In this document: positions 4,149 through 62,692 of the stretch, one piece after another
Position numbering within the stretch: the stretch's first letter is position 1
How the letters are laid out: every line of letters starts with the position of its first letter
Source of the DNA: a bacterium
GTDB lineage: Bacteria > Patescibacteriota > Minisyncoccia > JACQLN01
Length of the DNA: 64,000 bases
Reading direction: 5' to 3'
Assembly (NCBI GenBank): GCA_030697795.1
Contig: JAUYOV010000004.1
Location: forward strand, 211,334-275,333
Position numbers and translations under genes: made by a program
Notes under the pieces: generated by a model
Seen by the model: only the letters and a program-made list of their open reading frames with translations
What the model was told of the DNA's origin: nothing
Database searches by the model: none

Positions 4149-5168
4149 CTAAAAATTAAATACTGGATTTAATAACCCTACTGCGACCAAACTATTAATT
4201 AAATTAAAAATTCCAAAAAATATTACCACCAAACCCGCCGCTTTAAAAAATATTCCTGATTGCGCTTTTTTGTGGATGCCGAGCGAACTAAAACTTAAAA
4301 GCAAAAGCACGGGCAATGTGCCAAGCGCAAACACACCCATAATTAGCGAACCTGCTAAAAAATTTCCGGTAGTTAGTGTATAAATCTGCATAGATTGAGT
4401 GAAACCGCACGGCAAGAAAAAGGTGGCAACGCCTACCAAAAGAGGCGTAAGCGTATGGTTTACACTTTTGAGGCCATGCACCCGCTTCCCAATAAAATTA
4501 GGTATAGTTGGTTGTAATTTTTTGGCCCAAGGGAACACATCCAGAAGATTAATGCCGAGCACAAGAAGCACTAAAGCCACTATAAAACTAAGAACGAATG
4601 TGACGGTTGATCCAAGCTGAAAAGCCGAGCCAAGCAGGCCGATAGCACCACCCAGAATAAAAAACGATACTAACCGTCCTATATGAAACAACACCTGCGG
4701 ACGAATCTTATCTCCTTCTTTGGCAAAGTTTGCGGACATAGAAAGAACTAGTCCACCGACAACTGCCATACACGTAGAAACAGAGGCTATCAGACCAATA
4801 ATAAAAGCCGTGCCCAAGCCAACTTCCGAACTGTTAACCAAATTTACTAAGCCAATCTTTTGTAAAAAAATAAAAAGCAAAATAAAACCTAAAGCTATTG
4901 GACCCGCCATTAAAAAATCTTTCCATTTAACTGAATGTTTTTGTTTTTCCAGAGAAAGTATATAACCGTGCGGTTTTAAGACTTCGTTTAAATCTCTCGC
5001 GATGTGTTCGGGTTCTTTATCACCAAAATCACCAGTCACTTCTATAGTATGATTTGTAAGCGATGACTTTGCTTTTGACACCTCGGTCATATTAGCAAGT
5101 TCGCTTTCTGTGAGCGCCACGCAGGCGTTGCAGTGCATACCGTTAACGTGAAATATGTATGTTTTCAT
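4149..5168 (-). CDS. HMA-domain (GMHCNAC) fused to a DsbD_2/CcdA-like polytopic membrane protein
   Basis: The N-terminal heavy-metal-associated motif GMHCNAC is followed by about 6 TM helices. These carry two membrane-embedded Cys residues (STCMA and FLPCGF), typical of the DsbD_2 family. Confidence 0.5.
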   Translation of the reverse strand: MKTYIFHVNGMHCNACVALTESELANMTEVSKAKSSLTNHTIEVTGDFGDKEPEHIARDLNEVLKPHGYILSLEKQKHSVKWKDFLMAGPIALGFILLFIFLQKIGLVNLVNSSEVGLGTAFIIGLIASVSTCMAVVGGLVLSMSANFAKEGDKIRPQVLFHIGRLVSFFILGGAIGLLGSAFQLGSTVTFVLSFIVALVLLVLGINLLDVFPWAKKLQPTIPNFIGKRVHGLKSVNHTLTPLLVGVATFFLPCGFTQSMQIYTLTTGNFLAGSLIMGVFALGTLPVLLLLSFSSLGIHKKAQSGIFFKAAGLVVIFFGIFNLINSLVAVGLLNPVFNF

Positions 5169-34370: not shown

Positions 34371-37300
34371 TTAAATATTTTTAATCCCCACCCCGATTTC
34401 AAATCCTTCATAATTCCAAACTTTGTGGACCAAGAAATTTTCGTGTTCGGTTATGCCAAAGTTAATTTGTGTAGAACGAGTTTCGGCTTTTATAACTTGT
34501 TCCCAACGAGTTAATAATTCTTTAAAGTTGGCGTTTTGGTTAAGTTCGTAATGTAAAATTATTTTATCTTCTGGTGTTAATTTGGCTTCTTTTCGCATTT
34601 CGTTTATATTGCGAATCATTTCACGAACCATTCCTTCTTCCTTAAGCTCCGCCGTAAGTTCGGTATCCAAATTAACGTTGTTCTTTTCTATTTTTCTATC
34701 ACTTAAAACTTTTTTAACATTGAGTTCTTCGGCAACTATATATAGAACATCGCCAATTAAATTGTAATCAGCCGGTGAAACATATAAAGCATTTAAGGGC
34801 TGGCGTACGCGCAAACCCGCTTGAGCGCGCTCGGCAAGCCCCAGCGCCACAATTTCGCGGGCTCTATCCATGACTTTCGTAATATCGGAAGCCTTAACAG
34901 TTTTGGTATTTGGCCATTTTTCCAAATGAACCGACTCCCCAAACGCCGATAAACGCCGATTTTTATCCGCGCTGATCCGCGCTGATCCTTGCGTTAATCC
35001 GCGTAATTCTTGATAGAGCCATTCCGATATAAACGGCGCAAATGGCCCCATAACAACAGATACGCGTTTTAAAACTTCGGTTAAAGTATTTTGAGCCGAT
35101 AGTTTTTCGGCATCTATATTTTGCTTTTGGAACTTACGGCGGCTACGGCGTATATACCAATTAGAAAGTTCGTCTATAAAAGCTTCTATAGCACGCGAAG
35201 CGGAAGTAATGTCGTAGCTTTCTAAAAATTTATTTACTTCGAACTCCAACATTTCTGTTTTAATCAAAACCCATTTATCTAAAATATCTGTTTTGGCTAG
35301 TAAAGATTTCGGAGCTTCGGTGTAATAAGTTTCTAAAAACAAAAACGAATTAATTAAAGTATCGGCGAATCTACGTTTTTTAGATTCTATATCGCGCAAA
35401 CTAAAAAGTTTATTATCGCCCGGCGCGTTTACAGTGTAAAAATACCAACGCATCATATCGAACCCAACTTTCTCACCCACCAGCCAAGGGTCTACAATGT
35501 TCCCTTTAGACTTCGACATCTTCTCGCCCTTTTCATCTAGAACATGGTTTAAACTAATTACATTCTTATACGGATTACCTTCGCCTAAAGCGGTAGATAC
35601 CGCCATTAAAGTATAAAACCAGCCCCGGGTTTGATCGATCGCTTCGCAAATATAATCTGCTGGAAAATGGTCTTTCGGTAAATTTTTATTTTTTATATTT
35701 AAATTTTTCTTGTCCTTCGAAGCCTTGCTGTGCCACTCCGTAGCTTTGAGCGAAGGGTGGGCGTAGGAGGAAACTTGAGACGCCCACGGCATTGCACCCG
35801 AATCAAACCAAACATCGGCCAAGTCTTTTATACGTTCCATCTTCGAGGAACACATAGAACACTTAAGGAACACGCTATCGGCATAGGGGCGATGCAGGTT
35901 TAAATTGCCTTCTTCATCGTGGGGCCAGTTATTTGTTTCTACAAAAGTAAATTCGGCAGGGGACAAAGCTAGTTTAGAATCTTTAACTGCGTTTTGATAC
36001 AAAAGTTTTGTTTCGTCTTCGCCATAAATTCCATTAGATAATTGCATTAAAAATAAGGGGTCCATATGGCTTACCACAACCACCTTCTTGCCAGCGTGTT
36101 CTCTAGAAACATCCATCATAAATTCGCGCACCCGTTTGGCCACATCCAACCACGATTCGCCTGCCGGCGCGGGGCGAATAAATTTATCTTTAAAAGAATT
36201 AAAATATTTTTCATATTCCAAAAATGGCCCGCCATTAAACTCGCCAGTGTTTATTTCGCGTAAGCGTTCATCAAAAATTACTTCTTTTATTTTAAGTTCG
36301 TCCGCCAATATTTGAGCCGTCTCTCTGGCTCTTAATAGATCCGATGAATATATGGCCGATACCTTATTAGCCGCCAAAAGTTTTTTTATATTTTGGGCGG
36401 ATGCCTCTGCTTGTTTTCTACCCTTTTCGGTTAGGGGGTTTAAAATCTTTTCAGGGTAAGCACTGCAAATACCTTTAGCGTTAGATTCTGCTTCGCCATG
36501 GCGCATTAAAATTAAAGTGGTTGGAGAATCTAGGCGGTGTTCGTTAAGCTCGGCTAAAGAACCAATAACAGTTTTGTGTTCGCATTTGGTGCATGCCCAA
36601 ATTGGCAAGGGTGTTCCCCAATAGCGTTCGCGGCTTATAGCCCAGTCTTTAACCTCGCGTAACCATTCGCCAAACCGGCCATCTTTAATGTGTTCGGGCA
36701 CCCAATTAACTTTTTCGTTATTTTTAATTAGATCGTTTCTTAACGCCGACATTTTTATAAACCAACTTTCTTGGGCGTAATATAGTAAGGGCGATTTACA
36801 CCTCCAGCAAAAAGGATATTCGTGCTTATAGCTTGACTCATTAAACAGCAAATTTTGTTTTTTTAAGTAAAACAAAATCGTTTTTTCGGTTATGGGGTCT
36901 TTTTTGTTTTCACTAACAACAGCAAGCCCGCCTACTATAGGAACAGATTTTACAAAAACTCCTTCACGATTAACCGTGTGGAATTTAGGCAAATTTAATT
37001 TGGAACCGAGTTCAAAATCGTCGACGCCATACATTACGGCTGTATGCACAATGCCCGTACCATCTGCGGTAGTTACAAAATCGGCTTCGTAAACTCTGTA
37101 CGAATTTTCGGATTCCAACTCTTTAACAGCAAAAAGTGGTTCGTAAGAAAGTCTAGTAAGCTCGCTAGAAGTTAGTTCTTTATTTATTTTGTATTCTACT
37201 TTAGCCTCGCCAAAAACTTTAGGCGCTAAATCGCGAGCCAAAATATATTTTTCACCATTAGCTTCGACTTCTACATAGGTAACTTTCGGGCCAACAGCTA

Positions 37301-38003
37301 ACGCAACATTTCCCGGTAACGTCCAAGGCGTCGTGGTCCAAGCCAAAAGAAAAGTGTTTTCTCCGCCAGCTGGCGGATTTTTAACTTTAAATTTTATTAT
37401 GACCGACTTATCTGTAACTGTTTCGTAACCCTGCGCCACTTCGTGGCTGGAGATGGGCGTACCACACCTAACACAAAAAGGCACAACTTTATAATCTTTA
37501 ACTAAAAGTTTTTTATCGTAAATTCTTTTTATAATATTCCACAAACTTTCTATGTATTGCGGTTCGTAGGTTATGTATGGGTTTTTAAGGTCGAGCCAGT
37601 AACCCATGCGGCGCGTTAGCTTTTCCCATTCATCTTTATACTGCCAGACTGATATTTGGCATTCTTTATTAAATTGAGCGATGCCGTATTTTTCTACTTC
37701 GCGCTTATTTTTTAAACCTAATTTTTTTTCGACTTCAATTTCTACCGGCAAACCGTGTGTATCCCAACCAGCCCGACGCAAAACATAGCGCCCTTTCATT
37801 GTTTGAAAACGGCAAACAATATCTTTAAACGATCTAGCTAAAACATGATGGAGCCCTGGTTTACCGTTGGCCGTAGGCGGGCCTTCGTAAAATACGAAAG
37901 GTTTACCATCTTTAGTGGCTTTTAAAGTCTTTTCAAAAACATCGTTATCGTGCCAATGTTTTAAAACTTTTTCTTCTTCTTGGGGTAAATCAACGTGACG
38001 CAT
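34371..38003 (-). CDS. ileS: Isoleucyl-tRNA synthetase with an inserted histidine-phosphatase (PGAM-like) domain and repeat-derived in-frame inserts
   Basis: HIGH-type motif PPTANGKPGLHHV; KMSKS; editing domain. The insert LILMRHGEAESN...VVVSHMD (RHG and second His motifs) sits between WACTKCEH and LHRPYAD. Confidence 0.9.
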   Translation of the reverse strand: MRHVDLPQEEEKVLKHWHDNDVFEKTLKATKDGKPFVFYEGPPTANGKPGLHHVLARSFKDIVCRFQTMKGRYVLRRAGWDTHGLPVEIEVEKKLGLKNKREVEKYGIAQFNKECQISVWQYKDEWEKLTRRMGYWLDLKNPYITYEPQYIESLWNIIKRIYDKKLLVKDYKVVPFCVRCGTPISSHEVAQGYETVTDKSVIIKFKVKNPPAGGENTFLLAWTTTPWTLPGNVALAVGPKVTYVEVEANGEKYILARDLAPKVFGEAKVEYKINKELTSSELTRLSYEPLFAVKELESENSYRVYEADFVTTADGTGIVHTAVMYGVDDFELGSKLNLPKFHTVNREGVFVKSVPIVGGLAVVSENKKDPITEKTILFYLKKQNLLFNESSYKHEYPFCWRCKSPLLYYAQESWFIKMSALRNDLIKNNEKVNWVPEHIKDGRFGEWLREVKDWAISRERYWGTPLPIWACTKCEHKTVIGSLAELNEHRLDSPTTLILMRHGEAESNAKGICSAYPEKILNPLTEKGRKQAEASAQNIKKLLAANKVSAIYSSDLLRARETAQILADELKIKEVIFDERLREINTGEFNGGPFLEYEKYFNSFKDKFIRPAPAGESWLDVAKRVREFMMDVSREHAGKKVVVVSHMDPLFLMQLSNGIYGEDETKLLYQNAVKDSKLALSPAEFTFVETNNWPHDEEGNLNLHRPYADSVFLKCSMCSSKMERIKDLADVWFDSGAMPWASQVSSYAHPSLKATEWHSKASKDKKNLNIKNKNLPKDHFPADYICEAIDQTRGWFYTLMAVSTALGEGNPYKNVISLNHVLDEKGEKMSKSKGNIVDPWLVGEKVGFDMMRWYFYTVNAPGDNKLFSLRDIESKKRRFADTLINSFLFLETYYTEAPKSLLAKTDILDKWVLIKTEMLEFEVNKFLESYDITSASRAIEAFIDELSNWYIRRSRRKFQKQNIDAEKLSAQNTLTEVLKRVSVVMGPFAPFISEWLYQELRGLTQGSARISADKNRRLSAFGESVHLEKWPNTKTVKASDITKVMDRAREIVALGLAERAQAGLRVRQPLNALYVSPADYNLIGDVLYIVAEELNVKKVLSDRKIEKNNVNLDTELTAELKEEGMVREMIRNINEMRKEAKLTPEDKIILHYELNQNANFKELLTRWEQVIKAETRSTQINFGITEHENFLVHKVWNYEGFEIGVGIKNI
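34941..35009. repeat. ATCCGCG-unit repeat in frame inside ileS
   Basis: AAACGCCGATAAACGCCGAT...ATCCGCGCTGATCCGCGCTGATCC..TAATCCGCG. Confidence 0.7.
35714..35770. repeat. Small palindromic repeat family, copy in frame inside ileS
   Basis: CCTTCGAAGCC...CCGTAGCTTTGAGCGAAGGGTGGGCGTAGGAGG. Confidence 0.7.
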
Positions 38004-38022: not shown

Positions 38023-39018
38023 TTAAGCTAGCGGAAAATAAGACATTAGTAAAATATCGGTAATTCCATAAGTATTCCCATGCTTCAACAACCCCAAATA
38101 AGAACTTACCGTTTCTGGCTCTGGGTTCTCTCCAATTCTTTTCATCATCCGTTTTTTAGTAACTGTTCTTAAAACTTTATGATCTGTAAAATGAACCCAA
38201 CCCAAAAAATCCGCACCCGAAGCTAGAGTTTTGATAAAAACTTTGTCGGGGTGGAGTGTGAGTTTGAGATTTTTAATTAAAAATTCTTGAATCTTTGGGA
38301 TTAAGTTCTCTAACCATTCTTTGTCTTGCGATAAAACCACAAAATCATCGGGGTATCTAATGTAATACTTAACTTTTAATTTATGTTTAACAAACTGGTC
38401 AAACTTGTTCATATAGATATTCACCAAAAGCTGGGAGGTTAAATTGCCCAAGGGCAAACCAATATTGGGTTTTGTTTTAAAACTGGACACAACATTATTG
38501 AGTAACCAAATAATATTTTTGTCTGGTATATATTCAGTTAGTATCTCTAGCAAAACTTTGTGATGAATACTGGAAAAGAATTTTTTAATGTCGCATTTTA
38601 AGACCCAGCAAGTTTTAGTGTTATTTTGACCAACTTTGTAAGCAAAAGACTGAAAACGATTCAGGGCTTTATGCGTGCCTTTGTTCTTTCGGCAAGAAAA
38701 AGAATCGGCTATGAATGTTTTATCAAAGAAAGGGTAAAGAATATGATAAATTGCGTGGTGAAGTAGCCTATCCCGAACTGTGGCTTTATGTATGTTTCGG
38801 GGTTTGGGGTCGGAAATATTGAAAGCTTGGTAAATGCCATGCCGATAAGTGAAATTGACCAAGTCTTGGTTAAGTTGAAAAATATTATCCATTAAATTAA
38901 AGCCAAATTCCTGCACATCTTTTCTTTTTCTCTTGCCTTTGATAAACTCCTGCCAAGCCAATAACAAATTATCAACGCTAATAACATCTTCAAAACTATG
39001 GATCAATTGAGTTTTCAT
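38023..39018 (-). CDS. DGR reverse transcriptase (RT3)
   Basis: LGNLTSQLLVNIYMN (SQ motif); IRYPDDFV. Paralog of RT1 and RT2. Confidence 0.85.
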   Translation of the reverse strand: MKTQLIHSFEDVISVDNLLLAWQEFIKGKRKRKDVQEFGFNLMDNIFQLNQDLVNFTYRHGIYQAFNISDPKPRNIHKATVRDRLLHHAIYHILYPFFDKTFIADSFSCRKNKGTHKALNRFQSFAYKVGQNNTKTCWVLKCDIKKFFSSIHHKVLLEILTEYIPDKNIIWLLNNVVSSFKTKPNIGLPLGNLTSQLLVNIYMNKFDQFVKHKLKVKYYIRYPDDFVVLSQDKEWLENLIPKIQEFLIKNLKLTLHPDKVFIKTLASGADFLGWVHFTDHKVLRTVTKKRMMKRIGENPEPETVSSYLGLLKHGNTYGITDILLMSYFPLA

Positions 39019-40754: not shown

Positions 40755-41195
40755 ATGGAGGCCAAAACAAACAAAAAGGCGTTTTTTAATTACGAAATCC
40801 TAGAAAAGTTCGAGGCGGGTTTGGTGTTGCTTGGAGGCGAAGTTAAATCTATAAGAAATAATCATTACAGTTTACAAGGCGCATACATAACAGTAGAAGA
40901 TGAAGAGGCTTGGTTAGTGAAAGCCATGATCGCCCCTTACCAGCCTAAAAATATGAGCGGGCAGTATAACCCCGAACGCAAGCGCAAACTTTTACTTAAC
41001 AAAAAAGAACTCCAGTATTTACAAGGAAAAACAAAGGAAAAAGGCTTGACTATTGTGCCTCTAAAAGTTTACAATAAGCACGGTCAAATCAAGTTAGAAA
41101 TTGCTTTAGCCAAAGGTAAAAGCAAGGGCGATAAGAGAGAAGTTCTTAAAAAACGTATCGCCGACCGAGATATCGCCAGAGAACTTAAATCTTGA
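40755..41195 (+). CDS. smpB: SsrA-binding protein
   Basis: Matches SmpB along its length (FFNYEILEKFEAGLVLLGGEVKSIR...). Confidence 0.9.
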   Translation: MEAKTNKKAFFNYEILEKFEAGLVLLGGEVKSIRNNHYSLQGAYITVEDEEAWLVKAMIAPYQPKNMSGQYNPERKRKLLLNKKELQYLQGKTKEKGLTIVPLKVYNKHGQIKLEIALAKGKSKGDKREVLKKRIADRDIARELKS

Positions 41196-41260: not shown

Positions 41261-41620
41261 CGGGGATGACATGAATCGACAAGGAACGTATCGATAAGAA
41301 TTCGAAGCTGAGGTAGACCACAAACTCATAAAACTGGTTACAAATAGTAAGTGCAAACTTATTTAGCGCTAATAAACCAGCGTTTGCTGTAGCTTAAAAT
41401 CTATCAGCCATCGCCCTGTTTTCGCCCGAGTAAACAGTGTGCGGTGCCAACCTTTCGGGCCGCTCTTTCAGGCCAGGCGAACTTGAAAGCTAAGACAACG
41501 CCAAAAGTTTAATTTTTTTCACCATTCTTTAAGGGTTAAACTTAAATTAAGAATGGTTAGGCTTCGTACTAGTTCAATCGAGAAATTTTTTGTACGCGGG
41601 TTCAATTCCCGCCATCTCCA
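41261..41620 (+). ncRNA. ssrA: tmRNA (ssrA)
   Basis: 5-prime end GGGGATGACATGAATCGACAAGG matches the canonical GGGGnTGAnnnnGAnTCGACnGG. 3-prime tRNA-like end GTACGCGGGTTCAATTCCCGCCATCTCCA has a T-arm and a 7-bp acceptor stem pairing with the 5-prime end. Immediately downstream of smpB. Tag ORF ends ...PAFAVA-stop. Confidence 0.8.
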
Positions 41621-41710
41621 CTGCTACGCCAAGGCTACGCAGTGCACGCACCAATCTAAACAAGACATGCTATATTAATTGAACGATCTTGTTAGATTAG
41701 AATAGTAGCA

Positions 41711-55209: not shown

Positions 55210-55632
55210 TTAATAGTGACTTTCTCTTATCGCAACAACATAAAAAACCCTATCAATAAGAAAAAAGAAAAGACGGCCTTTGTCATAATCAATTTTTGCT
55301 TCTTTTATTTCAGCATCGGGTAAATCAAACAACCCTTTATATAATTTCCTGTAGTTTCCACTATTATTAATAGGGGTAATTTCTAATTTTGGTAAACATT
55401 TTTTAAAATCATCTTCGGCTTTTATATTCACCCCTACATCACGCACTACACGAAGTGCTTTTTTTGCCATTTTAGGATTCATTCCATCAAGTTGGCACTC
55501 GCCACGATTATAGCGTTCAAATGAAATGAGTAGAGGTTTTGCCTCCGGAGCTTCTTCTGGTTGAGGAATTTCAGTTACCCTCTGGGGTATTGAACTTATC
55601 GATTGTTCTTCTTCGGGTTTTGGAATTGTCAT
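55210..55632 (-). CDS. Putative toxin partner of the Panacea-domain protein; RelE/ParE-like C-terminus with Pro/Glu-rich N-terminal extension
   Basis: C-terminal GRLFFFLIDRVFYVVAIRESHY resembles the RelE/ParE C-terminus. Immediately downstream of the DUF4065 gene. Confidence 0.35.
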   Translation of the reverse strand: MTIPKPEEEQSISSIPQRVTEIPQPEEAPEAKPLLISFERYNRGECQLDGMNPKMAKKALRVVRDVGVNIKAEDDFKKCLPKLEITPINNSGNYRKLYKGLFDLPDAEIKEAKIDYDKGRLFFFLIDRVFYVVAIRESHY

Positions 55633-55647
55633 AGCTCAAAAACATTT

Positions 55648-56118
55648 TTATTGCTTGAGCTTAGCGGCATAAAACTCTTTCATGTCTTTGAGTGAAATCT
55701 CGTTTTCTGAACCAACGCTTGATTCAATTCCCTCGCGTGCTTTTTGCCACGGTATCTCAGAATGAGAAAGATACTCTAAGTAAGCTGCGTCTTTTTTACC
55801 ATACACTGACCACACTTGATCTAGAAAGTTCTTTATCTCCTGTGAAATCATCGCAATATCCTCACTACTCACGTTTTTAACAATTGGTCCAAAGCCAAAA
55901 TTTTTATATTCAAAATATACATCACGCACAGCAGGGCCGTGTACCCACGCCTCAATTTTTTCATTAAAAAGTTTTTTGTCACGCAAGACAAGAGACCACG
56001 CCTGTGCATAGTAAAGTAGTTTTTGCAGTTTCTTATTTGTAATTGCCTTTTTTTCATTACTTGCTTTCCAGAGAAAATAGTCAGCAATTTTTTGTGCCCT
56101 CAAAATTCCGCGAATCAT
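55648..56118 (-). CDS. Panacea-domain (DUF4065, SocA/PanA-like) antitoxin-type protein
   Basis: Signature KLQKLLYYAQAWSLVL...WVHGPAVRDVY, typical of DUF4065. Confidence 0.6.
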   Translation of the reverse strand: MIRGILRAQKIADYFLWKASNEKKAITNKKLQKLLYYAQAWSLVLRDKKLFNEKIEAWVHGPAVRDVYFEYKNFGFGPIVKNVSSEDIAMISQEIKNFLDQVWSVYGKKDAAYLEYLSHSEIPWQKAREGIESSVGSENEISLKDMKEFYAAKLKQ

Positions 56119-56229
56119 AATAAATTAAGTATAGCAAACAGCAAGCGGGTGGCAAAGCTATCGCCCGATATTACACTAAATTTACTCAACCTACTTTTGG
56201 ACGGACGGATTTTGCGGCGGAACTAAATT

Positions 56230-59200
56230 TTAATAAGATCGTGTTCCTTTACAATAAGGAAATTTTGAACAACCATAAAATTTACCGCGTCTACCATTTC
56301 TTAAAATCATTTTTGCTCCGCATCGTGGGCAGATTTTATTGCTCGTTACCGTTGTAACTCTTTTTGTCGTTCCCATAACCCTGTACGATGAACTATGTCC
56401 CTTACAATACTTACAGAACCTACCATATTTGGTAAGCAATGAGGAATCCCTGAAATCATTGGCAGTTCTTATCTCTTTGCATTTGGAGCACTCTTTCATA
56501 TCCCCATTTTGCAAGCCCTCAATCGTCTCATGAATATGATTTATTCTGCTATGTCTGCTCACTCCGTTTTTGATCAGATTTCCAATTCTCTCATTGAGCG
56601 TTGCAACGGGATCATCACCGACATTGAATTTATTGATTCGTAAAAACTTATAACCGTAACTTTCTAGAACCTTTTCTCGATAAACATGAGCTTCGGTGTG
56701 ATAATCCTCATAATTAAACTCATTTATCTCGTCAATGTTTGTAAAGTGTTCCCTAAATCCGTCATATTCAATGATTATTTTGTGTTCTTTATGGCCTTCA
56801 TCTTTATAAACTAGAAGGAAATCAACTATGTAGTTTGGGTGGTTATAAGTTTTTTCTAACTGCTTCAAGTACTTCCCTAATTCAAATTGGGGGATAAATT
56901 CAATGTCGTCTTTGTGCTTCTTCCAAAAGTCGGTTTTGTAAAACCAATCCATGACTTTTGGCTCCATCTTTGATTTCACATCGGTTTCGCTGATACTCCG
57001 TTCTTTCCTCGCTTCGGCAAGCACAAAGTAGTAATGTCGCAACGCTTCTCCGATTGAGCCATTATATTTTTCAATTGGCTTGCTCAACACAAAGTACATA
57101 CACTCTTTAGCGCGACTCAACCCAACATTTAATCTTTGGGCTTTTATTTTTCCATCCTCTTCAATATCAACATTGCTCAAATCTTTAATAAACACGCCCC
57201 AAAGATGGTCGTCTTCTTCAGTGGCAACCAACGAGTAATAAATAATGTCTCTTTCCTCGCCCTGACAAGTGTCAAAAGTCATTATTTTCAGATTCAATTT
57301 GTCGTAGAAATAATCCTTTTCGAGTAACTTGCTAATCATCTCTACAAGAAGTTTCTGCTGATTGGTGTGCGGGGTGATTATTCCAACGCTTGAATTACTA
57401 TCAGCCTTTTTTAGCCTTTGTAATTCCGAGATAATAAATTCCGCTTCAAGAGAATTGGTATTTTGGGTTAATTCTTTTTTACCATCATGCTTGATAAAGG
57501 AGAAACGCAAAACTTCATCAATTGCTTTTCCTCTTATTTTCATCACCTGCAAGCTGTCTTGATAAAAGTACTTATTTGAATAGGAGATAATCTCTTTATA
57601 ACCCCTGAAGTGTTTGAGGAGTTGAGTATTGTAGTTAGTGATGAAAGAGCAAAACTCAAGAATAGATGTTTTGATGTTGAATTTACCAAGCTTAACCATA
57701 TTGGTTTCCTCATCAGAAACACACTCAAGGAAAGTAGCTTTAAGATCGTTAAGATATTCTCTATTTGTTTCAGTGCGCGCCTGTGCCGACTTGACGTTGC
57801 TGAACTGTTTCTTATCACCAAGAATGAGAACTTTCTTGGCCCGTAATAATGCCGGAAATGCCTGAGCGATGCTAACCTGCGACGCCTCATCAATGATTAC
57901 CAAATCAAATATCTCCGGCTCTAGCGGGATGTACTCTGCATAATCCCGTATACCAGCTAAAATACACGGAAATGCCTCTTTCAGTTTTAGAAATTTATCT
58001 CTCGGAAATCTTCGTTTTTGTCTGATAATGTCTCGCAACGCTGTGGCCGTTGTGCGGTTATTATCGTAGAAGTCAATCAACCTGTTATCCAAAAGATGGG
58101 TCATTTGAGCCGTTACTAACTCCTCTATACTTCGTTTTTGTCCCGCATAATTTAGTGGTGGAATATCTGCAAAATTCTTTTTTATTTTGTGTTGAAGTCC
58201 CAAGTATCTAATAAGTTTTGAGTATTCGAGATCGCCTACCTTCAAAAGCTCATTATCAATAAATGTGCTGATATTCGTTTCATCTATTTTTGTTTGCTTA
58301 GAAAATTTTGGATAACGATTGAGTAGAGAAACAATATAGGTTAAGTCTTCAAAACTGTCCGTAATAATCTCCAAGAAACTAGAGTATTCTTTCAAAGATT
58401 CTATTTCCGCTAAGAAATTATCGTCGTTTAGAAATTTCTCTATACCATCAACGCTTGTCTTATAGTTTTTGTTGCTAATCGCTTTATATTTGGTGAAAAC
58501 AGAAACGGCACTCCCTGCGATCTCAAGCTTCCTTAGTTCCTCAATATCTTTTGGAGCGAATGATTTATACCAATCAGTTTTTTGAAGTTGAGCGATTGCA
58601 GATTGATATTTATTTGTCGAAGTAAATAAGGCCTTGAATTTTTCTTGAAGCTCGCTGTCTTTGATAAGAGTGGTAAGGGATTCGATCAAATCAATCGTTC
58701 TGATAGTTGTGGGAAGGTCTTTTTTATAGTCAAAAATTTGTTCGGCAACCAGTTTAATCTCTTTCAATTTCTCGGTTAGTTTTTGAGGGGCGTTCAATTC
58801 TTCCGCTTTGAATGTCTTTTTAAATTTTGCGTTTAGTTCCTCAACCTGCTTGCCACGGAACAGATAGCCAAGGATAGGGAGTTTTAAACTCTCGTATTGT
58901 TCTATGAACCATTGAATTTGCTTGTAATTAAAATCAGAAAAAGTTGCTGATATTGATAATTCTGACAATCTCGGTCCAAAAGTTGAATTGAGATTTTCTA
59001 TACAATTTTTTATGAAAAACAAAACTTTCAACAAACTATCTACGTCTGCGAATTGTCTCGGCTTTTCAGTGCCGAGTAAGTTATATATAGTATCGTGTGA
59101 AGAAAGTTCGTTTCTGTAATTTTCAATTTCTAAAAACGACTCACCGCTCAAAGTGAAATCGGTTTTATCTTTATGTAAGCGAGTCGCTTTGTCCCGAATA

Positions 59201-61272
59201 TCAGCAACTTGAAAATATTTATCATAGTCGGTTTGAAATTTTTTCAAGAGAGATAATGCCGACTTTATGTTATTAATAAGTAACTCTGACGGTTTTGCTT
59301 TGGGGTCAAAATCATAATCATAATCTTTCAATTTTACTTTCAAATCTACAAGAATAGATCGTAGTTCTTCTAACTCGCCTGCTGATTCCGGATTCTTTAT
59401 CGCCTCATCAATATCAAGCGGAAACCCCTTTTCTTCAAAATAAGTTTCGAGGTCAATCAACTCGTGAATTTCTTTAAGATCAATTTCTCCGTAGGCCAAA
59501 ATCTCCGCTTGTAAATCTTCTTTAAGAGTATTTCCAACTTTTTCAATATCTGACTCAAGCGCGTCATGATTTTTCTTTACTGCCCGCAGATTGGTTCTGA
59601 TATTCTCAATTGCTGTTGTTGCCAAAATTTTACTGTAAGTACTCCCTGTTTTGCCAAGCCGTAAAATTGGATTTTGGAAATTCTTATCATACCGTACTGT
59701 GTTTAGTGTTTCGGTTATCTTATCCTCAACAACATCAAGAGCTTCTTTTTTATCAGAAAGAACCAAGACGGATTGATCCTTCAAAATATGATCAAAGGCA
59801 ATCGCGGTAATTGTATGACTTTTTCCTGTCCCCGGAGGTCCCTCTACGATGATATATTTACAATCGTCTTTTTTGATGGCTGACAAAATTTGACGTTGCT
59901 CACTATTGAGCGGAATTGGACTGTTGAAAACAAGGCGTTCGCTTGTTTCGGTTTCGTCCCACTCATCGTCTATAACTTTTTTGAAGGACTTGGGCTCGCT
60001 ATAAATGAAATCATCAATGAGTTGATTAAATGCTCCCGCCAAAATACTATCTCCAGAGGCAAGAAGTTTTAGAATTTCTTCATAGTCATTAACCAACGCC
60101 TCGTCCGACTTATCAAACAGGGCAATATAGCGGGCGTTTGACGCTCTCACCCAAAGACTTTTTGCAATTTGGTGCTCTGTGTCTGTTATGCTAATTTTCT
60201 TATCAAGTTTAAAAAAGTTGGTAATCTCATTCATTATCTCGCCAACCAATTCTCCAAAATTTTCTTTATATTGGGCAAGATAAATTATTCGATCCGTTAT
60301 GCTTTGTAGATTTCCGTGATGATTAGTTTCTTTGTTATATTCTTGTGTAATATATTCAAGTGCTTTCTTGTTTATATAAACTTGCGAATCAAATTCGACG
60401 GTCAGTGCGTCGCTCTGTTTGCTGACAGAAAACGGGATATAGAAAATTGGGTATTTAGCATTGTTGAAAGTTATATCGCAAAAGTAAAGATAAAATTCTT
60501 GCTTATCTAAAATCGTCCTATTTCTTTCCATCTCGTATATTTCGGCAAATAGATCGCCGACTTGGAAATTCTCGAAGAAAGAAACAATACTTGATTTAAC
60601 ATCTTTGACTTCAAAAACTTCTTTTACTTGCTTTGCAACATCAACTTCTGTCTTCGCCAAAATCAGTTTTACAATTTCAGAAATTTTGTTTTCTAATGGC
60701 GCTACAAGAACAGCGGTTAGTTCTTCTTCCATGAGATAGATACTGTTTTCATCGCCTAAATTCAAATTTTCCAGCGACTTTTCAAGGTTGCTGATAAACG
60801 GCAATACGAGTTCGGCTTTGATTACTTTTTCTGTTACTTCAAGAGAGGTCGTAAGAGCTTGATCATATTCTTTTAGGTGAGGTGCAGTCGATTTTTCTAT
60901 TTCCTCGGCTAACTTATCAATTATTTCCGAAATTTGCTTGGGCTTGATTTTGCCTAATTGTAGCCCAATAAGACCAAGGAGATTTTTAGGGATATTTGTT
61001 CTATAAACTCCCGCTTGAATGGTATTCAAAACATTAAAATCGAAGCCGCGAGTAACGGCTTTCCATGCGAGCGTATTGAAAGATGGGTATTTGTTAAGAT
61101 TAAGACCAATGAGCAAATTTGAACTATTGCGTAATTGGATGCTTCTTTTTGGGTTCCGCCGTTTATGGAAATCTGTTTCCAAGAAATCCATAAAATACTT
61201 GGCAACTTCTTTGATAAAAGCCAAGCCGTTATTTTGATTTTGTTCCGTTTTGTTACCTATTTTGTTTGCCAT
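56230..61272 (-). CDS. Giant (1680 aa) Upf1-like SF1 helicase with C-terminal DUF559/Vsr-like endonuclease fold and topoisomerase-type C4 zinc ribbons
   Basis: Walker A IIVEGPPGTGKSHTI with an AAA_11/AAA_12-like core. C-terminal IIIEYDGFREHF resembles DUF559. Final CPRCGAKMILRNGRRGKFYGCSKFPYCKGTR matches a Topo-type zinc ribbon. Confidence 0.75.
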   Translation of the reverse strand: MANKIGNKTEQNQNNGLAFIKEVAKYFMDFLETDFHKRRNPKRSIQLRNSSNLLIGLNLNKYPSFNTLAWKAVTRGFDFNVLNTIQAGVYRTNIPKNLLGLIGLQLGKIKPKQISEIIDKLAEEIEKSTAPHLKEYDQALTTSLEVTEKVIKAELVLPFISNLEKSLENLNLGDENSIYLMEEELTAVLVAPLENKISEIVKLILAKTEVDVAKQVKEVFEVKDVKSSIVSFFENFQVGDLFAEIYEMERNRTILDKQEFYLYFCDITFNNAKYPIFYIPFSVSKQSDALTVEFDSQVYINKKALEYITQEYNKETNHHGNLQSITDRIIYLAQYKENFGELVGEIMNEITNFFKLDKKISITDTEHQIAKSLWVRASNARYIALFDKSDEALVNDYEEILKLLASGDSILAGAFNQLIDDFIYSEPKSFKKVIDDEWDETETSERLVFNSPIPLNSEQRQILSAIKKDDCKYIIVEGPPGTGKSHTITAIAFDHILKDQSVLVLSDKKEALDVVEDKITETLNTVRYDKNFQNPILRLGKTGSTYSKILATTAIENIRTNLRAVKKNHDALESDIEKVGNTLKEDLQAEILAYGEIDLKEIHELIDLETYFEEKGFPLDIDEAIKNPESAGELEELRSILVDLKVKLKDYDYDFDPKAKPSELLINNIKSALSLLKKFQTDYDKYFQVADIRDKATRLHKDKTDFTLSGESFLEIENYRNELSSHDTIYNLLGTEKPRQFADVDSLLKVLFFIKNCIENLNSTFGPRLSELSISATFSDFNYKQIQWFIEQYESLKLPILGYLFRGKQVEELNAKFKKTFKAEELNAPQKLTEKLKEIKLVAEQIFDYKKDLPTTIRTIDLIESLTTLIKDSELQEKFKALFTSTNKYQSAIAQLQKTDWYKSFAPKDIEELRKLEIAGSAVSVFTKYKAISNKNYKTSVDGIEKFLNDDNFLAEIESLKEYSSFLEIITDSFEDLTYIVSLLNRYPKFSKQTKIDETNISTFIDNELLKVGDLEYSKLIRYLGLQHKIKKNFADIPPLNYAGQKRSIEELVTAQMTHLLDNRLIDFYDNNRTTATALRDIIRQKRRFPRDKFLKLKEAFPCILAGIRDYAEYIPLEPEIFDLVIIDEASQVSIAQAFPALLRAKKVLILGDKKQFSNVKSAQARTETNREYLNDLKATFLECVSDEETNMVKLGKFNIKTSILEFCSFITNYNTQLLKHFRGYKEIISYSNKYFYQDSLQVMKIRGKAIDEVLRFSFIKHDGKKELTQNTNSLEAEFIISELQRLKKADSNSSVGIITPHTNQQKLLVEMISKLLEKDYFYDKLNLKIMTFDTCQGEERDIIYYSLVATEEDDHLWGVFIKDLSNVDIEEDGKIKAQRLNVGLSRAKECMYFVLSKPIEKYNGSIGEALRHYYFVLAEARKERSISETDVKSKMEPKVMDWFYKTDFWKKHKDDIEFIPQFELGKYLKQLEKTYNHPNYIVDFLLVYKDEGHKEHKIIIEYDGFREHFTNIDEINEFNYEDYHTEAHVYREKVLESYGYKFLRINKFNVGDDPVATLNERIGNLIKNGVSRHSRINHIHETIEGLQNGDMKECSKCKEIRTANDFRDSSLLTKYGRFCKYCKGHSSSYRVMGTTKRVTTVTSNKICPRCGAKMILRNGRRGKFYGCSKFPYCKGTRSY

Positions 61273-61306
61273 ATAGCTACTTTATTAATCATCAATATTA
61301 GCACTA

Positions 61307-62692
61307 TTATGTCAAATCATGAATCTGACCTACTTGAGGAACCATTGCTTCCACCCCTAGATCGTTTTTGATTTTACCAGCTAGCACTGAAGCCGGGCCT
61401 TCTTCGCCTTGGACCACAAAAACTTTTTTAACACCTTTAATAGCACTTACCCATTTTAAAAGACCAATTTGGTCGGCGTGGGCCGAGTAACCGCCGATAG
61501 CTTTAACTTCGGCGCGCACTGGAATAACCTCGCCAAACATTTTTACTTCTTGCGCACCATCCAAAAGGCGCCGACCCAAGGTATTTTGAGTTTGATAACC
61601 GATTATCAAAAGTGTGGATTTGGGATCGGGTAAATATCGGCGTTCGTGATGCAATATTCGCCCGCCTTCCGACATACCCGAACCCGCTATTACAATTTTT
61701 GGCGGCAAAACTTCGTTTATGGCTTTAGAAGACTCTGTGGTTAAAGAAAACTGTAAGCCCGGGAAATTAAAAAGATCATCGCCCGACTTTATTAAATAAC
61801 CAGCCTCTTTATTAAAATAATCCGGATATTTTTGATATATGGCCGTGGCTTTTATAGCTAAGGGGCTGTCTATAAAAATCGGCATTCTTTTTATTCGGCC
61901 GGATTCCACTAGATCATTTAATTCAAAAAGCAATTCCTGCGTTCTTTCTAAAGCAAAGGCTGGAATCATTAACGTGCCGCCATTTTTTACTACAGATTCA
62001 ATTATAGCTTTTAATTTTTCTTTTCTGCGCGAACGATCTTCATGAGTTCTATCGCCATAGGCCGATTCCACTAAAACATAATCGGCTTCGGTTATAATTT
62101 CTGTGTTTTTTAAAAGCGGGGTGGGCGAATTGCCTAAGTCGCCCGAAAAAACAATTTTAGTTTTTCGGGACGTCCCGAGCGTAGTCGAGGGATTACTTTC
62201 ATTTAGATAAAATTCTATTATAGATGAGCCTAAAATGTGGCCGGCGTCTCTAAAAAAAGCTTTAATATTTTTATTTACCTTAACCTCTTCGCCGTAAGAA
62301 CGCCCATGCGTTAATTTCCAAATTTCTATAAGATCATTTTCGTCAAATAATGGTTCTAAACCAGTTTCTTCGGCTTCTCTTTTTAACAAATGCAGGGAAT
62401 CGTCCAAGTTAACGCGGGCCAAATCCAAGGTGGCATGCGTAGCAAAAATTTTCCCCCTAAAACCTTCTTTGTAAAGTTTGGGTATGCGCCCCACATGATC
62501 TAAATGCGCGTGGGTTATAAAAACAGCATCTATGGTTGAAGGATCGTAAGCAAATTTTTCGTAGTTTTCTTTTTCAGCCATTCGGCCGCCTTGCTGTAAA
62601 CCGCAGTCAATTAAAACTCTGGTGTCGCCACATTCCAATAAATAATTTGCGCCAGTAACCACACCGGCCCCGCCGTAGAAATATAATTTCAT
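61307..62692 (-). CDS. MBL-fold beta-CASP ribonuclease (RNase J / CPSF-like)
   Basis: HAHLDHVGRIP (HxHxDH) plus downstream beta-CASP motifs. 461 aa. Contains an in-frame GC palindrome insert at about 62163-62192. Confidence 0.7.
   Translation of the reverse strand: MKLYFYGGAGVVTGANYLLECGDTRVLIDCGLQQGGRMAEKENYEKFAYDPSTIDAVFITHAHLDHVGRIPKLYKEGFRGKIFATHATLDLARVNLDDSLHLLKREAEETGLEPLFDENDLIEIWKLTHGRSYGEEVKVNKNIKAFFRDAGHILGSSIIEFYLNESNPSTTLGTSRKTKIVFSGDLGNSPTPLLKNTEIITEADYVLVESAYGDRTHEDRSRRKEKLKAIIESVVKNGGTLMIPAFALERTQELLFELNDLVESGRIKRMPIFIDSPLAIKATAIYQKYPDYFNKEAGYLIKSGDDLFNFPGLQFSLTTESSKAINEVLPPKIVIAGSGMSEGGRILHHERRYLPDPKSTLLIIGYQTQNTLGRRLLDGAQEVKMFGEVIPVRAEVKAIGGYSAHADQIGLLKWVSAIKGVKKVFVVQGEEGPASVLAGKIKNDLGVEAMVPQVGQIHDLT

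Follow-up and report, generated by a model that had tools for sequence, protein, structure and literature searches.

The closest described relatives of the protein treated here are large helicase-nucleases, several of them known from anti-phage defence. Hhe was reportedly introduced by Gao et al. in 2020 as a single-gene system, and Mokosh is said to have been described by Millman et al. in 2022; the models of Hhe are NCBIfam NF042953 ('DUF4011 domain-containing anti-phage protein Hhe') and PADLOC PDLC02194. Anti-phage activity has been demonstrated for Hhe, a single helicase-nuclease gene, and is provoked by phage DNA-metabolism genes (bioRxiv 10.1101/2024.10.10.617714). The MTES_1575 domain was defined as a novel Vsr-type restriction-endonuclease (REase) fold fused to superfamily I (SF-I, SF1) helicases, with DUF3320 as its winged-helix tail; the DUF3320-type architecture runs from the SF-I helicase through the MTES_1575 Vsr-REase to a winged helix-turn-helix (wHTH) (Anantharaman et al. 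2013, PMC3710099). Nhi, at about 610 aa, is smaller and places an HsdR-like nuclease at the N-terminus, ahead of a DUF2075 helicase (PMC11232893; Bari et al. 2022). Here we examine a minus-strand gene at positions 56230 to 61272 of a 64,000-nt stretch of DNA, hereafter the window, from a bacterium of the Patescibacteriota (GTDB Minisyncoccia, JACQLN01; assembly GCA_030697795.1, contig JAUYOV010000004.1, positions 211,334 to 275,333 of the forward strand). Its predicted product joins a Upf1-type helicase to a divergent Vsr-like nuclease, and the gene travels as an accessory element among distant lineages. We lean towards a role in defence.

Domain architecture

The gene is intact: in the open reading frame (ORF) list it starts at an ATG and runs for 1680 codons to a stop codon, and the same protein sequence is known, as P0001, from a 278-kb contig of a metagenome-assembled genome (MAG). 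A sequence-only reading of the window had described this ORF, and all the motif strings that it quoted are present in the translation, namely YIIVEGPPGTGKSHTIT at residues 472-488, IIDEASQVSIAQ at 1126-1137, IIIEYDGFREHF at 1499-1510, and the cysteine strings CSKCKE...CKYCKG and CPRCGAKM...CSKFPYCKGTR at 1595-1625 and 1648-1677. The domain order it proposed, a long N-terminal region followed by a Upf1-like SF1 helicase, a Vsr-like nuclease and zinc ribbons, was right by Pfam and hhalign (Table 1). Conservation was assessed in an alignment of 120 close homologues and in a second alignment (A3) of 31 divergent full-length members of 28-46% identity. Both show strong constraint along nearly the whole protein, with the centre of an insertion in the helicase (approximately residues 641-1000) as the exception.

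The presence of a Upf1-type SF1B helicase was confirmed. As the sequence-only reading had anticipated, both Pfam helicase domains exceed their gathering cut-off of 27 bits: AAA_11 matches residues 455-588 and a second stretch (E 2e-16, 60.8 bits), and AAA_12 matches residues 1214-1395 (E 1e-20, 74.1 bits). Each is found in all 31 divergent members, in which K484, D1128, E1129, Q1156, R1380 and R1387 are invariant and the QGEER motif (1337-1341) is invariant or close to it. A profile of the family matches Upf1, Dna2, IGHMBP2 and Sen1 in the PDB with E values from 1e-10 to 4e-14. The helicase core is split, with about 640 residues between the Walker A motif (K484) and motif II (D1128/E1129), a feature that the sequence-only reading had missed. 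At the centre of the insertion both length and sequence vary among the 120 homologues, identity to the query being 0.11-0.42 with gaps of up to 77%, against 0.6-0.97 for the rest of the protein. In true Hhe (annotated hhe genes, L100 2011-7692 and L101 1960-7707) Walker A lies at about residues 440-456 and DEASQ at about 1380-1398, some 940 residues apart. A giant insertion in the helicase core is thus found in bona fide Hhe too and characterises the superfamily as a whole.

The nuclease is supported as a divergent MTES_1575/DUF559 (Vsr-like) domain on the strength of profile comparisons. With the full-length protein Pfam returned MTES_1575 only, below threshold (E 0.017); with the isolated C-terminus it returned MTES_1575 (E 1e-3) and DUF559 (E 9e-3), both under the gathering score. 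Specifically, the scores were 15.6-19.2 bits for MTES_1575 (cut-off 38.2) and 16.3 bits for DUF559 (cut-off 20.6). The same sub-threshold matches to both families recurred in all eight close members, and the match to MTES_1575 in 17 of the 31 divergent ones. As canonical references we used the MTES_1575 domains of plasmid-borne DUF3320-type helicase-nucleases, which score 102-109 bits in Pfam. Against these, hhalign gave a probability of 94% (E 1.3e-7) and brought the motifs S..E, h-D-h, E-x-D-G..H and D..RQ..LE..G into register, the query carrying two insertions relative to the canonical domain. Furthermore, no variation is seen at D1484, F1485, D1504, R1545 or N1547 across the 31 divergent members, and almost none at E1502 and H1509. 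Because of the profile-profile alignment and the residues conserved at catalytic positions, we assign the nuclease despite its sub-threshold Pfam scores. The sequence-only reading had named the lack of a DUF559 profile match as one outcome that would refute its proposal; at Pfam thresholds there is indeed no such match, a result that the profile-profile evidence overturns. An AlphaFold2 (AF2) model of residues 1400-1680, built from a shallow alignment of eight close homologues, reached a predicted local distance difference test score (pLDDT) of 47, too poor for a fold search, although its strand-strand-helix-strand-helix order would be compatible with a Vsr-like fold. Because the residues of both motor and nuclease are invariant, both enzymatic centres are under purifying selection.

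Two C4 zinc ribbons of topoisomerase type had been proposed for the C-terminus, and this holds for the second of them. Zn_ribbon_Top1 (PF01396) matches residues 1647-1679 (E 2.4e-11, 43.7 bits against a gathering score of 32), the region also matches the C-terminal part of E. coli topoisomerase I (4rul, E 1e-7), and its cysteines are invariant in eight members. The ribbon of topoisomerase I type is a domain named and known for DNA binding. The first ribbon is a generic C4 ribbon, which found no specific Pfam family and only weak generic zinc-ribbon matches; its four cysteines (C1595, C1598, C1620 and C1623) are invariant in the eight members and kept in the consensus of the 31 divergent ones. 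Zn_ribbon_Top1 is present in nine of the 31 divergent members and DUF5710 in two, and some members that end in a WYL domain (close homologues among them) or in DUF5710 have no Zn_ribbon_Top1 match. Judged from these domain assignments, the C-terminal tail is exchangeable within the family.

The N-terminal domain is specific to the family. It has no Pfam match in the eight close or the 31 divergent members, and residues 1-450 have no sequence relative in the PDB at E<=10. A profile of the domain retrieved 507 clusters (at 50% identity) from 1.84 billion representatives, which form a coherent family; among the long matches (approximately 1300-1700 aa) the domain sits N-terminally, and many of the matches listed are shorter fragments. 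The DUF4011 domain that the sequence-only reading had suggested looking for was not detected: Pfam found none at E<=10 in eight N-termini, none in the full-length query and none at E<=0.01 in the 31 divergent members. Profile alignment with four DUF4011/Hhe N-termini was likewise not significant (hhalign, 2% probability, P 0.025), nor was that with the N-terminus of DUF3320-type proteins, and both identifications were set aside. The same short motif aligns each time between the query and Hhe/DUF4011 N-termini (YLY..I....YPLFYIP with GFleW....APLf.vPv); this possible common motif is suggestive only and is treated as a lead. An AF2 model of the domain, from the same kind of shallow alignment of eight close homologues, had a pLDDT of 50 and was unusable. 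Within the domain, FDKSDEALVNDYEEIL (residues 386-401, nt 60070-60117, minus strand) contains four acidic residues, D387, D390, D396 and E398, that are invariant or nearly so in the 31 divergent members, and this cluster could serve in metal binding or in an interaction.

Relation to named defence proteins

A comparison with the defence models places the protein near several anti-phage families and inside none of them. In PADLOC, the database search that the sequence-only reading had called for, the matches were to MkoC (E 2e-41), PDC-S37, MkoA (E 1e-37) and Hhe (E 1e-15, in the same region as the NCBIfam Hhe match); they lie far below the cut-offs and within the helicase core. NCBIfam ProA (NF058533, 'anti-phage protein ProA') scored 142.9 bits against a cut-off of 1500 over residues 437-1392, and NCBIfam Hhe scored 89.1 bits against a cut-off of 2000 over residues 1097-1393 only. 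The PADLOC candidate PDC-S37 scored 135.5 bits over residues 459-1394, with positions 298-1193 of the 1550-position model aligned. Thus the ProA and PDC-S37 models span the whole split helicase including its insertion, from Walker A to motif VI, and are the best full-span matches, whereas MkoC (residues 1120-1392), MkoA and Hhe cover just its C-terminal half. The N-terminal domain, the nuclease and the tail stay unaligned with ProA and PDC-S37, and no PADLOC or NCBIfam defence model covers any of these three regions.

From the scores below cut-off, together with the common plan of N-terminal domain, split helicase and MTES_1575, we place the protein in the Hhe/ProA/PDC-S37 superfamily as a separate clade that belongs to no named family. 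As read from the profiles, the plan of the superfamily is an N-terminal accessory domain, an SF1B Upf1-type motor with a very large insertion, a Vsr-like MTES_1575 nuclease and a nucleic-acid-binding tail, and what sets the clade apart is an N-terminal domain found only there, the divergence of its nuclease and a tail in which zinc ribbons replace the DUF3320 winged helices. Translated searches (tblastn) reach annotated hhe genes and DUF3320 helicase-nucleases on plasmids, and three plasmid helicase-nucleases, one of them of DUF3320 type, have the N-terminal domain, split helicase and MTES_1575 without a Pfam DUF4011 match.

Hhe is the nearest tested analogue. Like the query, it is one large polypeptide that opens with an accessory region of about 440 aa, has its GPPGTGKS and DEASQ motifs set far apart and carries a Vsr-like nuclease after the helicase; it too occurs as a solitary gene on mobile DNA. 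The query differs in the shorter gap between Walker A and DEASQ (about 640 residues rather than about 940), its C-terminal zinc ribbons and its taxonomic range, which is mostly Patescibacteria, as well as in the DUF4011 and N-terminal profile results given above. The DUF3320-type proteins share with it the split AAA_11/AAA_12 helicase followed by MTES_1575, and their nuclease domains are homologous to that of the query by hhalign; however, their nucleases are canonical in Pfam where that of the query is sub-threshold, their tail is a wHTH where the query has two zinc ribbons, and the N-terminal domains are not detectably related. Three inspected relatives, among which plasmid examples of this type, adjoin BREX, a BPTD_3080 restriction enzyme, and AbiE with a GIY-YIG nuclease, respectively.

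The sequence-only reading had called the protein Nhi-like. Nhi similarly unites an SF1 helicase and a nuclease in one defence protein, but the 1680-aa query has a C-terminal nuclease and an AAA_11/AAA_12 helicase, so that order, families and size all differ, and the PADLOC search returned no Nhi match. The Mokosh proteins MkoA and MkoC share the Upf1-type helicase core and gave the top PADLOC E values, but the Mokosh nuclease is of PLD type, Pfam found no PLD domain in the query, and only the C-terminal helicase half aligns. Dna2 and Upf1 are the closest solved motor domains, and Dna2 also joins a PD-(D/E)XK nuclease to an SF1B helicase. In Dna2, however, the nuclease is N-terminal to the helicase and of another PD-(D/E)XK family, and both proteins are without the giant insertion, the query-type N-terminal domain and the zinc ribbons.

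Distribution and transfer

The gene is accessory and passes from one distant lineage to another, in many cases on large-serine-recombinase islands, and it needs no conserved partner. In a scan of one genome per species (185,579 species genomes) at least 504 species carry a relative; the best 78 of these are 52-86% identical to the query, except for three loci at 37-46%. About a third are labelled Patescibacteria. Others include Acidobacteriota (on a 2.27-Mb contig), Nitrospirae, Planctomycetota, Dehalococcoidales, the cultured Elusimicrobium simillimum (strain Sma112) and Methanoperedens, and a plasmid of Priestia megaterium (NZ_CP065336.1 22497-26600) encodes a full-length member, WP_323874070.1. 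In 50 of 56 loci the gene has a higher AT content than its flanks, with a difference of up to 0.20 (0.14 in the Methanoperedens contig), and its GC content correlates with that of the host (r 0.80). The two observations jointly indicate repeated transfer followed by residence. A homologue 87% identical to the query (locus L007) lies at an unrelated location among different neighbour genes, its DNA similarity to the window is confined to 56229-61295, and the sole non-coding DNA common to the window gene, L007 and a further locus (L008) is the 23 nt upstream of the ATG.

The taxonomic labels of MAGs need care. For the Methanoperedens contig (L038), the label is borne out by an archaeal ACDS alpha gene that lies 3.5 kb from the family member. 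A locus labelled 'Candidatus Woesearchaeota' (L071, 3314-7861) was rejected as archaeal: TGA occurs in frame 30 times in the gene there, 24 times opposite a glycine of the query, which points to genetic code 25 (Gracilibacteria/Absconditabacteria) and a mis-binned bacterial contig. The recoding also shows that the gene has resided in this lineage for a sufficient time to undergo it. In a separate observation, two different copies, 56% and 55% identical to the query, were found on separate contigs of one Acidobacteria MAG (fen_180; L079 and L080), pointing to paralogues within a single genome or to a mixed bin.

A phage origin of the family was considered and rejected. The 50,697 GenBank phage records gave weak helicase-core matches only and contain no family members, and the 2.9 million viral contigs of IMG/VR contain three.

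Genomic neighbourhoods

Conservation of the neighbourhood had been proposed as a check on function. Clustering of 643 neighbour ORFs from 84 loci revealed no conserved partner gene, and what recurs is company of a looser kind, with recombinases, restriction-modification and other defence genes often near. Large serine recombinases are met most often: 25 of 86 loci, and 16 of the 33 that are well flanked, have one no more than 10 kb from the gene; it lies on either side, in either orientation and from 20 bp to 9 kb away, with differing cargo between. Methyltransferases (13 loci), TerS-like genes (10) and TerL (six) follow. Among 120 immediate neighbours, Pfam identified resolvase, DUF2130, DUF2779, PDDEXK_1 and N6_N4 methylase domains, and six were serine recombinases. 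About 10% of these neighbours have strong PADLOC matches (type I and II restriction-modification, Ppl, SoFic, MzaA, Old/Gabija-like and PDC candidates).

Directly upstream of the family gene, and in the same orientation, 14 of 63 loci have a small helix-turn-helix (HTH) gene belonging to either of two unrelated types, HTH_17 and XRE; in several loci an HTH_17 gene of excisionase type is translationally coupled to the helicase-nuclease gene. On a Variovorax plasmid (L014) a 65-aa ORF (4664-4861) without Pfam or NCBIfam match has a 4-nt overlap with the start of a helicase-MTES_1575 gene that is only distantly related to the query, an arrangement resembling that of the small upstream HTH genes. 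Small upstream HTH genes and WYL domains are both regulatory traits frequently seen in defence systems, an example being WYL regulators of BrxR type (PMC9122589).

One compact island of approximately 12 kb (L003) holds a recombinase, TerL, a TerS-like gene, two methyltransferases, an HTH gene, the helicase and a PD-(D/E)XK protein. Small islands of this kind recur (for example L001 12615-15937 and L003 2964-4824), in which the helicase-nuclease is accompanied by a large terminase subunit, a TerS-like protein of 140 aa, DNA methyltransferases, a PD-(D/E)XK protein and sometimes DUF2130. With no capsid genes in view, they resemble phage-satellite-like or degraded prophage elements in Patescibacteria. 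The gene is cut by, or within 700 bp of, a contig end in 32 of 78 loci. Assembly breaks were considered as a sign of a repeated element and dismissed, six cases standing against about four expected by hand calculation in 38 contigs longer than 30 kb.

The window itself is of a housekeeping character. A beta-CASP RNase gene lies 34 bp upstream of the helicase-nuclease gene, and RNase HII, UDG, a permease, a subtilase, PolX, SmpB with transfer-messenger RNA (tmRNA), IF3 and L20 are nearby; neither recombinase nor terminase was found in the window, and Rfam reported no structured RNA in the vicinity of the helicase-nuclease gene. The beta-CASP, RNase HII and 140-aa proteins of the window recur beside the family gene in no other locus. 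The toxin-antitoxin neighbour noted by the sequence-only reading exists as a Panacea (SocA) antitoxin gene (E 2e-19) that adjoins the helicase-nuclease gene, followed after 15 nt by an ORF of 140 aa without Pfam match, presumably its toxin. The pairing is incidental: a Panacea homologue is near the family gene in one of about 85 other loci. A promoter-like site with a TG element was observed on the side of the Panacea gene. As for the helicase-nuclease gene, the site TTGACA-16-GATGAT has the top score in its region, and the whole promoter scan was not above chance (18 sites found, 23.6 expected), so that the site weakly points to a candidate promoter.

Elsewhere in the window, a reverse transcriptase gene (RVT_1, E 6e-26) adjoins an ORF of 1210 aa, and a further ORF has 75% DNA similarity over 127 nt to a reverse transcriptase gene at the start of L003. 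Rfam found no group II intron RNA in the window, and these reverse transcriptase ORFs may be a retroelement of another kind. The tmRNA (105 bits), which follows the SmpB gene, was reported by Rfam and not by ARAGORN.

Table 1. Features of the helicase-nuclease gene and other elements of the window (window coordinates)
Feature	Position	Strand	Basis or remark
Complete gene, 1680 aa + stop	56230..61272	-	ORF list; identical protein P0001
N-terminal family-specific domain, aa 1-450	59923..61272	-	Conserved motifs FLETDFHKR, YLYFCDITF...YPIFYIPF, FDKSDEALVNDYEEIL
Helicase domain 1A, first part, aa 455-590, Walker A GPPGTGKS (K484)	59503..59910	-	AAA_11 455-588, AAA_30, AAA_19
Insertion in helicase core, ~510 aa, aa 591-1100	57973..59502	-	Alignment of 120 homologues
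Helicase motifs II-VI, aa 1101-1400: DEASQ (D1128, E1129), Q1156, QGEER (1337-1341), R1380, R1387	57073..57972	-	AAA_12 1214-1395
Divergent MTES_1575/DUF559-type (Vsr-like PD-(D/E)XK) nuclease, aa 1432-1560	56593..56979	-	Sub-threshold Pfam, hhalign, conserved residues
First C4 zinc ribbon, generic (C1595, C1598, C1620, C1623)	56398..56490	-	Conserved cysteines
Second C4 zinc ribbon, topoisomerase-I type (C1648, C1651, C1668, C1674)	56236..56334	-	Zn_ribbon_Top1
Promoter-like site TTGACA-16-GATGAT, 10/12	61288..61315	-	Ends 16 nt before ATG; overlaps end of upstream beta-CASP gene
Panacea (SocA) antitoxin gene	55648-56118	-	Adjoins helicase-nuclease gene
140-aa ORF	55210-55632	-	Presumed toxin
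Promoter-like site TTGCCA-16-TATACT with TG	56155-56128		Panacea gene side
Reverse transcriptase gene	38023-39018	-	RVT_1
1210-aa ORF	34371-38003	-	Adjoins reverse transcriptase gene
ORF similar to reverse transcriptase gene of L003	18713-19621	-	DNA similarity
SmpB gene	40755-41195	+	
tmRNA	41262-41623	+	Rfam

Discussion

Based on these results we favour, with a confidence that falls well short of firm, the view that the protein is a mobile stand-alone helicase-nuclease, most likely acting in defence against invading DNA such as phages and other mobile elements. The nearest named profiles are all those of anti-phage proteins (ProA, Hhe, PDC-S37 and MkoA/MkoC), and the earlier proposal of a single-protein defence factor is to this extent retained as the best-supported reading. 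In such a scheme the zinc ribbons and motor would bind exposed single-stranded DNA, for example in replication or recombination intermediates; the motor would translocate 5' to 3' with ATP hydrolysis, like helicases of Upf1/Dna2 type; and the Vsr-like domain would cleave invading or replicating foreign DNA endonucleolytically. The N-terminal domain and the variable insertion may set when and on what cleavage happens. The small upstream HTH protein probably controls transcription in about one-fifth of loci, and the fused WYL domain would have a regulatory part in some lineages. For substrate, polarity and trigger, homology is our sole guide.

Several observations weigh against a defence function. 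None of the defence models is reached; the scores are approximately 5-10% of the NCBIfam cut-offs, with similarity confined to the helicase core. The window gene sits among housekeeping and repair genes, with only a toxin-antitoxin pair nearby and no defence island, and some homologues likewise stand alone among housekeeping genes, as at L009, where no recombinase or terminase is within reach. The share of defence-like immediate neighbours, about 10%, is a pooled count with no matched background. The protein is also unusually conserved for the product of a defence gene, at 55-77% identity over 1500 aa with synonymous sites saturated.

The setting of many copies could instead mean that the protein serves the mobile element that carries it rather than the host, for example by helping to replicate, process or transfer integrative elements or phage satellites that a large serine recombinase mobilises. 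The recombinase within reach in 16 of the 33 well-flanked loci, the TerS-like and TerL genes (10 and six loci), compact islands such as L003, the coupled upstream HTH_17 genes of excisionase type and a sequence conservation more typical of element core genes would all suit this account. Yet recombinase and terminase are out of reach in more than half of the loci, including the window and L009, and the variable placement of the recombinase, with its differing cargo, suits a cargo gene. The family has just three members in 2.9 million viral contigs, and we know of no replication or relaxase module that combines a Upf1-type helicase with a Vsr-like nuclease, which counts against such a role. We regard service to the element as unlikely. 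An enzyme of host genome maintenance, a Dna2- or AddAB-like helicase-nuclease for end processing or repair that would be useful in small genomes with few repair pathways, ranks lower in our estimation. Dna2 is among the closest solved helicase cores, and purifying selection is strong over the whole length. Within the wider superfamily, one DUF4011 helicase belongs to the core genes of P. aeruginosa and is found in every isolate (PMC10250203); this favours maintenance and speaks against our preferred view, and it means that relatives within the superfamily are not all accessory. Repair genes do adjoin the family, in the form of UDG, PolX and RNase HII in the window, XseAB at L003, a Y-family polymerase with YolD on the Priestia plasmid and DnaX, which the gene follows at L007, but these neighbours differ from locus to locus and none recurs. 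A maintenance enzyme would moreover be hard to reconcile with a patchy distribution (at least 504 of 185,579 species genomes, across bacteria and archaea) at identities far above the expectation from vertical descent, with a gene AT-richer than its flanks in 50 of 56 loci, and with a location that differs even between copies 87% identical.

Lastly, defence might be directed at RNA, as proposed for Mokosh, the Upf1-type motor acting on phage transcripts or RNA-DNA hybrids. The best PADLOC matches are MkoC and MkoA, and the nearest solved cores include the RNA helicases Upf1, IGHMBP2 and Sen1; nevertheless, the similarity to Mokosh is limited to the C-terminal helicase half (residues 1120-1394), the effector has the fold of a Vsr/MTES_1575-type DNA endonuclease and not the PLD nuclease of Mokosh, and the tail is a DNA-binding zinc ribbon of topoisomerase I type. 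We consider this the least probable of the accounts.

Returning to DNA-directed defence, we can formulate a bolder and, in our judgement, rather doubtful version of it: that the family is a highly conserved and hitherto overlooked single-gene immune module with its N-terminal domain as a new sensor, spread by large-serine-recombinase islands in ultra-small Patescibacteria (including lineages in which UGA encodes glycine), unrelated bacteria and Methanoperedens. If this were true, lineages in which few defence systems are recognised would have in this module one of their principal nucleic-acid defences, and the constraint on it (55-77% identity with synonymous sites saturated) would suggest a target that is difficult for invaders to alter.

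At present PADLOC v2 and NCBIfam 20 models see the helicase core alone and so leave without a defence annotation a family that occurs in several hundred species or more, a gap that matters most in bacteria of the candidate phyla radiation. Cultivable carriers, namely Priestia megaterium with its plasmid and Elusimicrobium simillimum Sma112, make the family experimentally accessible. Should it prove to act outside defence, architecture alone would not predict defence; should it prove to act in defence, the family would extend the Hhe-type design by a new N-terminal module and by exchangeable DNA-binding tails (zinc ribbons, WYL, DUF5710 and DUF3320).

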